Below, in pieces: positions 25,060 to 35,763 of a stretch of DNA of 64,000 nt (position 1 is the first letter of the stretch; every line of letters begins with the position of its first letter). Origin of the DNA: Chloroflexota bacterium (lineage in GTDB: Bacteria > Chloroflexota > Anaerolineae > UBA2200 > JACIWT01); assembly GCA_014360825.1 (NCBI GenBank), contig JACIWT010000002.1, forward strand, positions 14,782 to 78,781, written 5' to 3'. The notes below the pieces were generated by a model. It was not told the origin of the DNA, did no database searches, and was given only the letters and a program-made list of their open reading frames with translations. The position numbers were made by a program, and so were the translations under genes.

Positions 25060-27828
25060 TCATGCCTTCTCGATGCGGACAGCCGCCACCTTATACTCTG
25101 GGATTTTTGACACCGGATCTAGCGCAGCGATAGTCAGCAGGTTCGCTGCGGCTTCACGGAAGTGGAAGGTCATGAACACCACCCCTGGATCCGGTCGGTC
25201 AACCACCTCCGCCTTGGCTACGACTTCGCCACGGCGTGAAGTGACTCGCACTAGATCACCGTCCACAATACCCAATCTCTCGGCATCCCTGGGGTTGATC
25301 TCCACTGTGCCCTCAGGATAGAGCTGGTTCAGGCCGGGGATACGGCGGGTGATGGTACCGCTGTGATAGTGATACAGCACGCGCCCTGTGGTCAGCACGA
25401 GGGGATATTTCTTATCTGGCACTTCCTTCGCTGGTGCCCACTCTACCGCGTGGAACTTGCCCAGTCCGCGTGAGAATTTGCCCACATGCAAAATTGGCGT
25501 GCCCGGATGATCGGGAGCGGGACAAGGCCACTGTAATCCGACCTGCTCAATCCGATCATAGGTGATGCCCCCGTAACTTGGCGTCACAGCGTTGATTTCA
25601 GCCATGATCTCGCGTGGGTGTGTGTAGTCCCAACTGGCGAACTTTGCCTTCGATCTATCTATGCCCAGACGCGCTTCGACTCGCTTGGCTAAATCACAGA
25701 TGATCTGCCAGTCGGGGCGGGCGTTGCCTATGGGCTCGATGGCCTTGCGTACCCGCTGTACACGGCGTTCCGTGTTGGTGAAAGTGCCATCTTTCTCGGC
25801 GAAGGACACCCCAGGCAACACTACGTCGGCCAATTCCGCGGTCTCGCTCATGAAGATTTCCTGTACCACCAGAAAATCCAGACTTTGCAGGCATTTGCGG
25901 ACGTGGTTGATGTCGGGATCGGTCATCATCGGGTTCTCGCCGAGGACGAACAAGGCTTTAATGTCGCCGGCCTCGGCAGCATTGATCATCTCCACGACAG
26001 TGAGGCCAGGCTCTGTAGATGCGGTGCTGCCCCATGCTTCTTTGAACTTGGCTTGTGCTGCTTCATCTGCAACCCTCTGATATCCGGGGTAAAAGTTCGG
26101 CAAGCAGCCCATGTCACAGGCACCTTACACATTGTTTTGGCCGCGCAGGGGGTTCACTCCACCCCCAGGCACCCCCATGTTGCCAAGGAGCATTTGCAAA
26201 TTGGCCGTAGAGAGCACATTCTGGTGCCCTTTGGTGTGTTGGGTGATACCCATAGCGTAGATCAGTGCCCCAGGGCGGTTAACCGCGAGCAGTCGTGCCG
26301 CCTTGCGGACATCATCCGCTGGCACGCCAGTGATCTCTTCCGCATATTCTGGCGTGTACTTCTCCAGAACTGTCTTGAGTTCTTCAAAGCCTTCTGTGCG
26401 GTTGGCTACGAACTCTTTATCGTACAGATCCTCGGCGATCAACACATGCATGATGCCGTTCAGTAGGGCAATATCAGATCCCGGCTTATGCTTAAGGTGA
26501 AGGACGGCGACGTCGGCCAGTGGAATATCGCGTGGATCGGCCAAGATCAACTTGGCTCCGTTACGCGCCGCCTGTCGGAGGCGCATGCCAATCACCGGAT
26601 GTTGCTCCGTGGTGTTAGAACCGATTACCAAATAGGACTTTGCTTGGGTGGTAATATCCTCAATGGAGTTCGTCATAGCACCCGAACCGAACGCGGCGGC
26701 CAGACCGGTCACCGTGGAGGAGTGTCAAAGACGAGCGCAGTGGTCAACGTTGTTCGTCCCCAGCACCGCTCGAGTGAACTTCTGGAGGAGATAATTCTCC
26801 TCGTTGGTGCATTTGGCGGAACTGAGGACGGCGATAGCGTCGCCACCATGCTTTTTCTTAGTCTCTGCGATTTTCTCAGCCACCAGGTCTAGAGCCTCGT
26901 CCCAAGAGGCTTCGACGAACTTCCCGTTTCGTTTGATCAGCGGGGCTACTAACCGATCGGGATGATTCACAAAATCGTAGCCGAACCGGCCCTTCACACA
27001 AGTCCAGCCGTGATTGACAGGAGCATCCCAATAGGACGTTACCCGAATGATTTTGCCGTCCCTTACGTTGAGGTCAAACTGGCAACCGACGCCGCAATAG
27101 CCACAAGTAGTGGTAACCTTTTTCATTTCCCAAGTGCGTCCCAGTCCTTTAGCGCCTTTAGGTGAAAGGGCACCCGTGGGACATACTTCCACACACATGC
27201 CACAGAATTCACAAGGTGAGTCCTCAAGATAGCCATCTTTTGCTGTACCAGGTTTGGCCCGGAAGCCACGATACAGCATTGAAATGGCCTCAACACCGTT
27301 GATGTAACTGCAAGCGCGCACACAGGCCTGGCATACCACACATTTATTGTAGTCTCGCTCAATGAAAGGGTTGGGGTCGCTGATAGGATAGTGATGCTCC
27401 TCACCCCGATAGGGCGACTCTTTGATGCCCAACTCATAGGCGAGATCCTAAAGCGTGCAGTTGCCCGCCTTCTCGCAAGTCATGCAGTCGAGCGGATGGT
27501 CTGAAAGCAATAATTCCAAAACAAAGCGGCGCAGCGCCACGATACCGGGGGTATGCGTCTTAATGCGTATACCTTCTGCCACGGGATAGGTACATGAGGT
27601 CTGAAAGGATGTAACATAGGTGGTCTCAGTGGTCCCATCAGCGTTTTGCTTGACACGAGGAATCCCTACTTCCACCAAACAGAGGCGACACGCTCCAATA
27701 TCAGGCAGAGCAGGATGATGACACAGGGTGGGGATCTTGATTCCCATGGCGGTGGCTGCTTTAAGGATTGTGTTACCCTCTTCCACTTCCACTGCCCGGT
27801 CATCGATTGTGAATCTAATCAGTGGCAT
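25060..27828 (-). pseudogene. fdhA: NAD-type formate dehydrogenase alpha subunit (FdsA/FdhA; NuoG-like 2Fe-2S/4Fe-4S N-domain + molybdopterin domain), selenocysteine at TGA 26727-26725; two further in-frame stops (TAG 27450-27448, TAA 26127-26125) at conserved Gln positions
   Basis: The four track ORFs are contiguous and in one frame. CTL(TAG)DLAYELG aligns to C.LQ; CARL(TGA)HSSTVTGL aligns to FdhF CARV-U-HGPSVAGL; GQNNV(TAA)GACDMG aligns to GQNNVQGACDMG. Confidence 0.75.
26694..26714 (-). promoter_or_regulatory. candidate bacterial SECIS hairpin 11 nt downstream of the fdhA UGA codon
   Basis: mRNA CGGUGACC-GGUCU-GGCCGCCG: 8-bp stem with one mismatch and a GGUCU apical loop containing the G-U typical of fdhF-type SECIS. 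Confidence 0.4.
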
Positions 27829-28318
27829 CGATCTCCTCCCGCTTTGTCAGTTGTAAGATCTGTTCAACCGCTGGTTGCACCAGCGTCTCAGTGGCCGTAG
27901 AAAGGCCACGGTGGAAATCGAACTCGTAACCCCGGATAGACACAATGTGGCCCGTAGGCTTTCGATGGTGGAGTGCATCGAGCAACGCAAGGAGCATCGC
28001 TGGATTCATGTGGTGGGTGAACGCAGACGCGGCATATTCCGGCAGCACGTGCGCGCAATGCAGATCATCCAGGTCTTCGCGGATGTGTGCATCCACGAAG
28101 ACGATTTGATCGTAGTCCACCAGCAGGTCCACCAATTCGGGCGATAATTGCATGAGAAAAACAGAATCTGTCTGAGCGCCGAGTGCTTCTAAGCCCGTTT
28201 CGTCTTCATGCAGAATCTCTTGCCCCAGGCGCTGGCGCAGGCTGTTGATCGCATAGTATGCAACGCCATCATCGGCGCGGTCCAGATTGCCGTAGCCAAT
28301 GACCAGGGAGCGAGGCAT
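27815..28318 (-). CDS. hoxW: [NiFe] hydrogenase maturation endopeptidase (HoxW/HycI-like)
   Basis: IGYGNLDRADDGVA N-term motif and conserved Asp/His metal ligands. Confidence 0.8.
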   Translation of the reverse strand: MPRSLVIGYGNLDRADDGVAYYAINSLRQRLGQEILHEDETGLEALGAQTDSVFLMQLSPELVDLLVDYDQIVFVDAHIREDLDDLHCAHVLPEYAASAFTHHMNPAMLLALLDALHHRKPTGHIVSIRGYEFDFHRGLSTATETLVQPAVEQILQLTKREEIDATD

Positions 28319-28405
28319 CAGACCCCCACCAAAGTGACAAAGAGGGCAAGGGAGCGAACCGGTTTATGTTCGCCCCCTTGCGTTGGGCTCGTCCAGGCTG
28401 TTACA

Positions 28406-35200: not shown

Positions 35201-35350
35201 GCAGCCGGTTTGCACCAGTCGTACCTCGCCATCCAGCCCACGGCGTTTGATCTCCTCGGCTAAGGCCTCGAAAACCGCCGGGGATTTCGATGCTGTACAG
35301 CCCGTGCCGCCACAGACGAGCACGTTGGCTCTATATAAAGGTTCCGCCAT
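32300..35350 (-). CDS. triple-fusion flavoprotein: NuoE-like [2Fe-2S] + NuoF-like (NADH/FMN/[4Fe-4S]) + GltD/NfnB-like FAD/NAD(P)H pyridine-nucleotide oxidoreductase
   Basis: [64 protein letters not shown]; two 4Fe-4S Cys motifs; [14 protein letters not shown] and [14 protein letters not shown]ossmann motifs. ATG after GAGGA (the track ORF extends 23 codons further upstream). Confidence 0.85.
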   Translation of the reverse strand: [1016 protein letters not shown]

Positions 35351-35382
35351 TGAGATCCTCCTCGGGATACGAAGATATTTTT

Positions 35383-35763
35383 CTATTGTTCGCTGGTGGG
35401 CAGCCGACCTACTACCCACTCTTGCACTACATTGCCTTTGATTAAATGCTCCTCAATGAGCCGGGGCACCATATCTGGTTTGACGTTTCCGTACGTGATG
35501 CGTGGCTTGCCTGCCTGTTCGATATCCACCAACGGTTCTTTGACGCACATGCCAATGCATCCGACGGTGGTGACGTGGGCTTCGATCTCACGCTTCTTGA
35601 GTTCCTCAAGGATGGCGTGCATCGTCTCACGTGCTCCGGCAGCGATGCCGCAGGTGCCCATGCCGACGGTGATCTTGGTGCCTGTCTCCAGCCGTACCTT
35701 GAGGTCTTTTTGTGCTTCTTCGCGCAGTTTCTTTAGATCTTCTAAGGTCTTCAGTCTCGGCAT
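35383..35763 (-). CDS. thioredoxin-like [2Fe-2S] ferredoxin (HydC/NuoE-like small subunit)
   Basis: Cys motif GMGTCGIAAG ... VGCIGMCV. Confidence 0.7.
   Translation of the reverse strand: MPRLKTLEDLKKLREEAQKDLKVRLETGTKITVGMGTCGIAAGARETMHAILEELKKREIEAHVTTVGCIGMCVKEPLVDIEQAGKPRITYGNVKPDMVPRLIEEHLIKGNVVQEWVVGRLPTSEQ

Follow-up and report, generated by a model that had tools for sequence, protein, structure and literature searches.

We analysed a 64,000-nt stretch of a Chloroflexota contig (the window; all coordinates are positions in it) that encodes a group-3 [NiFe] hydrogenase together with a fused flavoprotein, HydB::GltD (32300..35350, minus strand; its open reading frame (ORF) extends to 35419). 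In this protein the C-terminal ferredoxin-like domain of HydB is missing, and a GltD-type module with two [4Fe-4S] clusters of another fold stands in its place. The reading that we favour, with moderate confidence, is that the operon encodes a cytoplasmic hydrogenase on the NiFe-HydABCSL plan, with NADP(H) on the branch that formerly led to ferredoxin, and that it serves only H2 in this genome as fdhA decays. Gene assignments rest on Pfam and NCBIfam profiles and on the genes called in a second, independent assembly (L076). A preliminary description of this DNA had listed genes for HoxH, HoxY, a 593-residue NuoG-like protein, the long ORF, HoxW, FdhA and maturation proteins; all were present on the minus strand, and its assignment of a soluble group-3 [NiFe] hydrogenase was supported.

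The start of the fusion is most likely Met24 of the 1039-residue ORF (position 35350), because NCBI and Logan both call it and chain B of the NiFe-HydABCSL structure of Acetomicrobium mobile (A. mobile; 7T2R_B) aligns from residue 5. The product would then have 1016 residues instead of the 1039 first proposed, and residue numbers below follow this shorter form. Pfam analysis of the long ORF (32300-35419; domain limits in this sentence are counted along the ORF) identified 2Fe-2S_thioredx (26-106), Complex1_51K (184-355) and NADH_4Fe-4S (467-550), followed in the GltD part by Fer4_20 (554-643) and Pyr_redox_2 (659-955). Residues 1-100 (35051-35350) form a HydB-type thioredoxin-like [2Fe-2S] domain, B5, with ligands C13, C18, C50 and C54. 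Residues 130-545 (33716-34963) form the NuoF module, which contains the flavin mononucleotide (FMN)/NADH site, cluster B1 (C457, C460, C463 and C503) and the B2/Zn ligands. Residues 546-1016 (32300-33715) form the GltD module, with two [4Fe-4S] clusters, a flavin adenine dinucleotide (FAD) site and an NADPH site, and match NfnA. Thus, Pfam and the alignments agree with the earlier view of a flavoprotein that combines NuoF-type FMN/NADH and GltD/NfnB-type FAD/NADPH sites. The N-terminal domain had been taken for a NuoE-type domain, and the diaphorase for a single polypeptide; the domain is B5, and NuoE/HydC is the product of a separate gene (36358-36825) outside the range then considered. The domain junctions lie at ~35,000 and ~33,716-33,740; they had been placed at ~34000 and ~32900, off by ~1000 and ~800 bases.

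Fusion residues 5-544 aligned to 7T2R_B residues 3-542 without a gap (E = 1e-257). The B2 ligands of A. mobile HydB are C438, C476, H525, C531 and C536, and Cys or Thr is a reported variation at the second of these (PMC8880783); the site has been modelled as Zn by other groups. It maps to C440, T478, H527, C533 and C538 in the fusion. Among 25 fusions, with identity as low as 37-51%, C440, H527 and C533 were invariant and C538 was 96% conserved. After this hinge, unfused relatives continue with '...CTALLRYEIDPDKCKRCGLCAKNCP...CIRCGTCFQKCP', which is the ferredoxin-like domain with clusters B3/B4, whereas the window fusion switches to 'APCTNACP...' right after Cys538. The CxxCxxCxxxCP motif, present twice at this place in unfused relatives, was not found in the window fusion, and Fer4_20 was its only Fer4 Pfam domain. 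The GltD module begins eight residues after the last hinge cysteine (C538 to C546).

In the GltD module, the cluster cysteines C546, C550, C585, C589, C593 and C597 were 92-100% conserved among divergent fusions, and the tail cysteines C1008 and C1011 were invariant. Its NADPH motif is identical at YRRT..EMPA, and closely similar in the rest, in NfnA (9N5U, 9BOV), StnC (8OH5) and NfnB (4YLF). Residues 546-1016 matched 9N5U_A (3e-123), 9BOV_A (5e-123) and 8OH5_C (1e-105), and the module was nearer to NfnA/StnC (415 bits) than to classical NfnB (340 bits). Relative to NfnB/GltD it is circularly permuted, and the inserts of NfnA/StnC have the same permutation: the segment that opens NfnB (4YLF_B residues 5-43) forms the extreme C-terminus of the window fusion and the end of the GltD insert in NfnA/StnC. 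The two halves of the permuted cluster are at 32300-32347 (residues 1003-1012) and 33692-33715 (residues 546-550); the counterpart of the former is N-terminal in T. maritima NfnB. Judging from motif order, the tail would supply the 'RCLxC' ligands of the cluster begun at C546/C550. This arrangement suggests that an Nfn-Bfu-type cassette was transferred between the A and B subunits, in one direction or the other.

We also weighed the possibility that the ORF is an artefact of assembly or annotation joining hydB to gltD; nothing was found in favour of this, and we consider its probability negligible. The Logan assembly of SRR28822788 (L076) matched the window over 23,051 bases with 5 mismatches (99.98% identity), called the same 1016-residue product and was identical across the junction. 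A protein search returned more than 120 clusters (90% identity) of 1012-1049 residues, at least 71% identical over 98% of the query, and a scan of species-representative genomes gave 75 loci, ~55 of them with the full-length fusion. The hosts of the full-length form are Anaerolineae and other Chloroflexota, Desulfobacterales (including Desulfatibacillum), metagenome-assembled genomes (MAGs) of Actinomycetota, and Candidatus Amarolinea, so the same continuous ORF recurs in several phyla. The permuted cluster is a further argument, because its closing ligands, the invariant C1008/C1011, lie at the extreme C-terminus. An assembly chimera was therefore rejected on the independent assembly and the hundreds of full-length homologues, and the fusion next to the [NiFe] enzyme, as first described, is genuine. 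Among representatives at 50% identity, NuoF-GltD fusions fell into ~10 or more separate clusters, and in a crude neighbour-joining tree of the NuoF module (without support values) the fused forms occupied at least five well-separated branches; the architecture is thus old or recurrent. The source names of these proteins are generic ('NuoF', 'FAD-dependent oxidoreductase', 'HndC').

For all five structural subunits, the cryo-electron microscopy structure of A. mobile NiFe-HydABCSL (7T2R) was the best or near-best solved relative. The large subunit HydL/HoxH (28406..29833, minus; PF00374), with the motifs RICGICPVSH and DPCLSCSTHA, matched 7T2R_D at 6.4e-174, compared with 2.6e-127 for group 3d HoxH (5XF9) and 5.8e-126 for group 3c MvhA; the identities were 54%, 46% and 45%, respectively. 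A C-terminal extension after DPCLSCSTHA is common to the window and A. mobile HydL. In a neighbour-joining tree, HydL proteins of fused-HydB operons, from Chloroflexota and Desulfobacterales, formed a clade sister to A. mobile (Synergistetes) and Synergistaceae. With five solved references, HoxH (3d) and MvhA (3c) fell outside the window-plus-A. mobile group, and HoxH of 5XF9 branched adjacent to it. Pfam HoxH (PF27537) matched the identical HydL protein in L076. No NCBIfam equivalog scored above its cutoff for HydL, HydS or HydA; HoxE and HoxU gave sub-threshold matches, the HoxU profile covering only the first 226 residues of HydA. The small subunit HydS/HoxY (29846..30409, minus; PF01058) probably starts at 30391, giving 181-187 residues, and its best match in the PDB was 7T2R_E (2e-53, aligned from query residue 7).

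HydA (30406..32187, minus; 593 residues) had 7T2R_A as its best PDB match (5.5e-99). It also shared 36% identity with the first 446 residues of FdhA, the alignment being broken by a 9-residue gap exactly at the DHCARL-Sec-HSS active site of FdhA (Sec, selenocysteine). Because of this gap, we regard HydA as a catalytically dead Fe-S scaffold of the FdhA/NuoG type. It lacks a GltD insert and aligned to 9BOV_A only from residue 570 onward. The separate [2Fe-2S] subunit HydC/NuoE (36358..36825, minus; 155 residues, PF01257 over its full length at 4.6e-49) carries the C1 cluster and matched 8A6T_C (5e-46) and 7T2R_C (1e-43), both HydC subunits of bifurcating enzymes. HydB scored 861, 752 and 695 bits against bifurcating HydB proteins and at most 447 against the non-bifurcating FdsB/NuoF.

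Two accessory genes lie between hydC and the fusion, a histidine-kinase-like ATPase gene (HisK-like; 35806..36357, minus; HATPase_c 2e-17) and hydD (35383..35763, minus), which encodes a 126-residue thioredoxin-like [2Fe-2S] protein (PF01257, 3.9e-05). Both match genes of the A. mobile operon, whose accessory genes are HydD, HydP and HisK; HydD and HisK belong to that operon but are outside its holoenzyme (PMC8880783). A PHP-domain gene upstream of hydC (36846..37616, minus; PF02811, 1.3e-08) might correspond to HydP. HydD is among the best-conserved genes of the locus (65-96% identity across nearly all of the related loci, 65-93% in most relatives).

In the Bfu family, the BfuB/BfuC cofactor set, including B3/B4, has been called 'absolutely conserved' (Schut et al. 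2022, PMC9304861). The window operon has group-3 HydL and HydS with HydABC homologues, in the order hydC...hydB-hydA-hydS-hydL. Its HydA/BfuA is NuoG-like, without an H-cluster or pterin active site; HydC/BfuC is separate and has the C1 [2Fe-2S] cluster; and BfuB has the FMN/NADH site, B1, B5 and the Cys/His B2 (or Zn) site. Since every NiFe-Bfu feature that we tested is present except the C-terminal ferredoxin-like domain of BfuB (B3/B4), we have filed the predicted enzyme as a variant of NiFe-Bfu and not as a canonical member. In the Bfu survey, the Nfn-like domain occurred on BfuA only, and NiFe-Bfu was reported from Synergistetes and Halorhabdus only (PMC9304861). The survey search required the ferredoxin-type domain IPR017896 and left out metagenomic data (PMC9304861), which would explain why the fused clade is missing from it.

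The closest characterised system is the A. mobile enzyme (NiFe-HydABCSL/NiFe-Bfu; 7T2R, 7T30; Feng et al. 2022, PMC8880783), which has the same five structural subunits and a similar operon content, including HydD and the HisK-like ATPase. The two HydB proteins keep the same length register over 540 residues and have similar FMN/NADH, B1, B5 and B2 ligands; A. mobile HydB then ends in a 55-residue B3/B4 domain, whereas the window protein continues with a 470-residue GltD module that has FAD and NADPH sites. HydA has 692 residues in A. mobile and 593 in the window, where it keeps more of the FdhA/NuoG molybdopterin fold. The fusion is thus absent from the one characterised enzyme of the nearest subgroup, and the finding that would have refuted the preliminary description was not made. 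The Stn/NfnABC enzymes (Nfn-Bfu; 8OH5, 9BOV, 9N5U; PMC10482914, PMC12018979) share the NuoE/NuoF-type bifurcating core and the same permuted GltD module, with its 'PCxxxCP' start, its 'RCLxC' end and its FAD and NADPH motifs. In them, however, GltD is inserted in the NuoG-like BfuA (NfnA/StnC), where it feeds the mid-potential chain, BfuB keeps its ferredoxin domain and there is no other catalytic module; in the window, it is BfuB that carries GltD, where its ferredoxin domain would be, and BfuA joins the [NiFe] hydrogenase. The kinship with bifurcating enzymes that had been proposed thus holds for both HydABCSL and Stn/NfnABC.

The fusion is neither rare nor entirely without precedent. It is widespread in Anaerolineae and Desulfobacterales, and Greening et al. 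2024 (PMC11216029) described hybrid [FeFe]/[NiFe] complexes of archaea (group F) that have a group-3 [NiFe] large subunit, a NuoG-like conduit, HydC, and a HydB with a glutamate-synthase domain. This HydB is likened to the window protein (Fer4_20 plus Pyr_redox_2) from its description only. The archaeal domain has been proposed, from modelling, as a low-potential acceptor site (PMC11216029). The hybrids are archaeal and are defined by a HyhS-HydA([FeFe]) fusion, whereas the window enzyme is bacterial, its HydS is a plain protein of 181-187 residues (187 at full ORF length) with PF01058 only, and no H-cluster domain is present in the operon. The complex therefore appears, by domain content, to be a partial precedent, and it was the only one found. 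Our full-text literature search returned no paper in which a HydB/NuoF-GltD fusion is described from bacteria, either with FdhA or with a [NiFe] hydrogenase. In the accessible part of a Chloroflexi preprint, 'group 3d' contexts with nqoF-like, hndB, nqoG and formate dehydrogenase (FDH) genes are given and no fusion is mentioned. The fusion is a new, widespread and uncharacterised variant of a known enzyme family.

Two further systems are less similar. Group 3d HoxEFUYH (5XF9) is, like the window enzyme, a cytoplasmic [NiFe] hydrogenase with a NuoE/F/G-like diaphorase; however, window HydL, HydS and HydB scored much lower against it than against 7T2R, HoxU has ~240 residues compared with 593 for HydA, and HoxF lacks a GltD module or any other extra C-terminal redox domain. 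The NADP-dependent formate dehydrogenase of Moorella thermoacetica consists of FdhA and an NADP-binding beta subunit, which is probably GltD-like. It is analogous to the FdhA-linked sister operons described below but has no NuoE/NuoF core and no hydrogenase; because fdhA is disrupted in the window, it is relevant to those sister operons only.

The fdhA gene (25060..27828, minus) begins within the end of hoxW, which encodes a hydrogenase maturation protease (27815..28318, minus; TIGR00072, 52.4 bits, cutoff 47.45), and the overlap reported earlier was confirmed. Between the hydL stop and the hoxW start, a terminator-like scan identified a hairpin with a 14-bp stem (9 G-C pairs) and a T-poor tail (28346..28381, minus). 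Site counts in the promoter/terminator scan of the window were not above chance, and this hairpin alone stood out. It could be an attenuator or mRNA stabiliser that parts the structural genes from hoxW-fdhA.

The preliminary description had listed fdhA as the gene of an FdsA-type formate dehydrogenase. The gene is there, but its frame of 2,769 bases, translated in a single frame without a frameshift, contains three internal stops that had been overlooked: TAG at codon 127 (27448-27450), TGA at codon 368 (26725-26727) and TAA at codon 568 (26125-26127). Codon 368 is the Sec codon: of 20 orthologs, 18 have TGA there and two have a Cys codon. Codons 127 and 568 encode Gln (CAG/CAA) in all 20 orthologs, and both extra stops are C-to-T changes at these invariant codons. 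The TAG is common to the window and L076, whereas the TAA is one of the five single-nucleotide differences between them (position 26127; T in the window, C in L076, which has CAA). In the closest relative (L007; fusion 92%/88% identical), hoxW is followed directly by focA, without fdhA and fdhD, and L002 retains only a 37-residue fdhA fragment. A six-frame scan of the window showed no other gene split by single in-frame stops. Recoding of TAG/TAA as Gln was rejected, because no other gene is split, one stop is polymorphic and the gene is deleted in relatives. Most simply, these observations mean that this lineage is in the course of losing fdhA, so that the operon now serves H2 only in this genome. 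The TAG lies just past the last Cys of the His-[4Fe-4S] motif, with an in-frame TTG five codons downstream, and a functional split of fdhA at this point is conceivable for the allele without the TAA; the window allele, with the TAA, also truncates the pterin domain of FdhA.

Gene context in relatives was determined by tblastn of window proteins onto the 75 loci. HydA-HydS-HydL-HoxW follow hydC-(hisK)-hydD-hydB::gltD in ~28 loci, from Chloroflexota and Desulfobacterales. In ~18 others, mostly Anaerolineae plus Amarolinea and one actinomycete MAG, an intact Sec-containing FdhA lies directly downstream of the same genes. FdhA can replace HydA because it has its own NuoG-like N-terminus. Both modules occur together only in the window and its twin assembly L076; elsewhere the fused HydB is paired with the hydrogenase or with FdhA and not with both, which speaks against the proposed formate:H2 link. 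Three loci hold traces of both. In L008 the fusion is followed by a HoxW-like gene and then FdhA; L003 and L006 keep a hoxW-like gene downstream of the FDH module, and in L003 mobA and hoxW-like sequences share one 444-residue ORF (18489-19823), followed by hypA, hypB and hypF. These traces suggest an ancestral operon with both modules and differential loss.

Divergent fusions also occur without hydrogenase or FDH (L077, L078 and L079). L078 (506-5697) has only NuoE, the fusion and a 403-residue NuoG-like protein, an arrangement that may be a compact transhydrogenase. In L079 (7239-17976), NuoE and the fusion occur as two tandem pairs, after which come genes for a Fer2_4 protein and a Glu_synthase (PF01645) protein, and in L077 the fusion is next to a response regulator and a histidine kinase. 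These contexts make the fused flavoprotein look like an all-purpose NAD(H)/NADP(H) unit that takes different third partners.

Sequence and homology show that HydL and HydS carry one [4Fe-4S] cluster and the Ni-Fe site, at which H2 is activated, that HydA is an FdhA-derived, catalytically dead Fe-S wire, and that HydC carries the mobile [2Fe-2S] cluster C1. An Fe-S chain leads through HydS and HydA to B1 and FMN. HydB provides the FMN/NAD(H) site, B1, B5 and the conserved Cys3-His B2/Zn hinge; its GltD module adds a pair of [4Fe-4S] clusters and FAD, where NADP(H) has the second dinucleotide site. In the canonical enzymes the gated branch runs from FMN through C1 and (B2) to B3/B4 and ferredoxin, and the ferredoxin-like C-terminal domain of HydB is the sole ferredoxin site seen experimentally in the family. 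Because this domain is gone and the GltD clusters begin eight residues past the hinge cysteine, the gated branch is proposed to be rerouted to NADP+. Electrons from H2 would pass from the NiFe site through S1, the HydA clusters and B1 to FMN, where NAD+ would be reduced, while the gated C1 branch would lead through the GltD clusters and FAD to NADP+ instead of ferredoxin. The coupling would be reversible: 2 H2 + NAD+ + NADP+ <-> NADH + NADPH + 2 H+. At low H2, the exergonic reduction of NAD+ would help to reduce the more reduced NADP pool, and in the reverse direction both nucleotides would drive H2 release. The physiological potential of NADP(H) is about -380 mV. That of NAD(H) is about -280 mV (PMC9304861). 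By our own calculation, their mean of -330 mV equals the potential of the H2 couple at roughly 100-200 Pa. In sister genomes, the same HydB::GltD/HydC core would work with FdhA replacing HydA-HydS-HydL. A broader proposal, which is possible but which we hold only tentatively, is that the ferredoxin branch of the Bfu core has been rewired to NADP+, making this enzyme and its FdhA sisters ferredoxin-independent 'dinucleotide-bifurcating' enzymes that share one interchangeable HydB::GltD/HydC core.

Several points weigh against the rerouting of the gated branch to NADP+. That electrons pass from C1 and the hinge to the GltD clusters is deduced solely from where the module lies along the chain. 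The NADP+/NADPH couple is not of truly low potential, so bifurcation would be required only when H2 is low. Both the HydL and the NuoF tree were built by neighbour joining and carry no support values, and the full-text literature search found no biochemistry for any fused form. The conserved [2Fe-2S] protein HydD could be an unrecognised redox partner. By analogy, ferredoxin could dock on the new GltD module: electrons leave NfnSL for ferredoxin through the corresponding GltD clusters. For the archaeal complex, 'likely ferredoxin' has been predicted at this domain (Greening et al., PMC11216029). These last two points lead to the main alternative, which we judge rather unlikely but deserving of weight, namely a hybrid of HydABCSL and Stn/Nfn with four substrates. 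Ferredoxin would remain the low-potential partner, on the distal GltD [4Fe-4S] cluster or between GltD and HydC, and NADPH would be a second mid-potential donor or acceptor beside H2, so that hydrogenase and transhydrogenase are combined in one enzyme. The GltD module is indeed closest to the NADPH-input modules of NfnA and StnC, the same two clusters serve ferredoxin in NfnSL (see PMC12018979), and L078, with only NuoE and a small NuoG-like protein, resembles a self-contained transhydrogenase that would need a third partner. However, the one experimentally seen ferredoxin site is absent, the operon has no ferredoxin gene besides the thioredoxin-like HydD, and no docking surface was identifiable from the sequence.

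A simple Hox-like, non-bifurcating NAD(P)+-reducing hydrogenase, in which GltD is no more than a further outlet, for NADP(H), and neither nucleotide site depends on the other, is less likely, and we give it only a small chance. Group 3d and 3b hydrogenases reduce NAD+/NADP+ without bifurcation, and H2 at high partial pressure can reduce either nucleotide directly. Non-bifurcating HydABC homologues also exist, such as Hyd of S. wolfei, Fds of R. capsulatus and SH of R. eutropha (PMC9304861). Yet the features tied to bifurcation are all kept (the separate HydC with C1, the B5 domain and the Cys3-His hinge), HydB is far nearer to bifurcating HydB than to FdsB/NuoF, and HydL groups with the bifurcating A. 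mobile enzyme and not with HoxH. The preliminary description had favoured a single soluble complex with a link to NAD(P)H, where the fused diaphorase would serve both FdhA and the [NiFe] hydrogenase and formate and H2 would be converted into each other. Gene order is in keeping with this, since fdhA starts within the end of hoxW and is followed on the same strand by focA, fdhD and mobA; intact Sec-FdhA adjoins the same HydB/HydC core in the ~18 related genomes, and the order in L008 suggests an ancestral operon with both modules. In this genome, however, nonsense codons stand at two Gln positions invariant in 20 of 20 orthologs, one of them in both assemblies, without any sign of recoding, and fdhA is lost in L007 and a remnant in L002. 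In addition, FdhA has its own NuoG-like N-terminus and would be a rival of HydA for the core, not an addition to it, and the strong hairpin parts hydL from hoxW-fdhA. A formate:H2 complex is thus largely refuted for this genome, and we consider it very unlikely. Of the original proposal, the NAD(H)/NADP(H)-linked and probably bifurcating [NiFe] hydrogenase stands and the working formate link does not.

The operon is part of a dense gene string on the minus strand that runs from ~39.4 kb down to 17.7 kb, flanked by DNA encoding housekeeping functions; the nearest relatives of the organism are Anaerolineales MAGs. The genes attributed to the operon at first are all within this string, which also extends further upstream than had been recognised, through HydD, the HisK-like gene and the PHP gene to a regulatory group on the same strand. 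This group consists of a DRTGG-domain gene (37640..37984; PF07085, 1.5e-08) that is kept upstream of the operon in Anaerolineae relatives, a gene for a protein with CBS (8.6e-31) and HATPase_c_2 (7.3e-08) domains (38010..38960; probable start ~38855; called at 281 residues in L076), and, first in the string, another DRTGG-domain gene (39021..39422; PF07085, 4e-08), called likewise in L076. Downstream of fdhA, also on the minus strand, are a focA-like formate/nitrite transporter gene (24041..24817; PF01226 on the identical L076 gene, 93% identical in L007), fdhD (23138..23989, probable start 23914; PF02634 on the L076 gene) and a mobA-like nucleotidyltransferase gene (22532..23128; PF12804 on the L076 gene). 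They are followed by hypF (20076-22511; HypF domains in L076), hypC (19820-20086; HupF_HypC, 2.7e-28), hypD (18748-19833; TIGR00075, 5e-143) and hypE (17726-18853; TIGR02124, 1e-141). This maturation cluster (17726-23128) passes directly from mobA to hypF, hypC, hypD and hypE and has no hypA or hypB.

A second, plain pair of NuoE (12829-13287) and NuoF (13280-14548, 422 residues) genes lies among signalling genes at 10488-17099. Around it are genes for an Rrf2 protein (10488-11075, minus strand), an AsnC-HTH plus receiver protein (11146-11982), three single-domain receivers (12022-12399, 12377-12832 and 14499-14957), an ACT protein (15100-15579) and a PilS-like histidine kinase (15630-17099). 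The pair (12829-14548) may be a redox-sensing NuoEF. The distant NuoF::GltD fusion of L077 offers a parallel, as it too has a receiver and a histidine kinase downstream.

The hosts of the fused HydB, Anaerolineae and Desulfobacterales, are common among metagenome-derived genomes, and the habitats of Anaerolinea range from hot springs to permafrost. Generic names such as 'NuoF' and 'HndC' would probably mislead metabolic models on the redox partners of these proteins. The either/or occurrence of FdhA and HydA-HydS-HydL on the same core documents module swapping, and the window genome has been caught in the course of losing fdhA. If the proposed coupling is true, a reversible, ferredoxin-free enzyme would benefit fermenting and syntrophic organisms when H2 is low. 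If the broader proposal also holds, electrons from H2 or formate would be split between an oxidised NAD pool and a reduced NADP pool, and one interchangeable core would serve alternative catalytic modules across Anaerolineae and Desulfobacterales. In this clade the gating machinery, C1 and the Cys3-His hinge, is retained, while an NADPH flavoprotein has taken the place of the ferredoxin domain. The clade thereby offers a natural test of what the low-potential branch needs, and of whether both nicotinamide pools can be linked to H2 or formate when ferredoxin plays no part.

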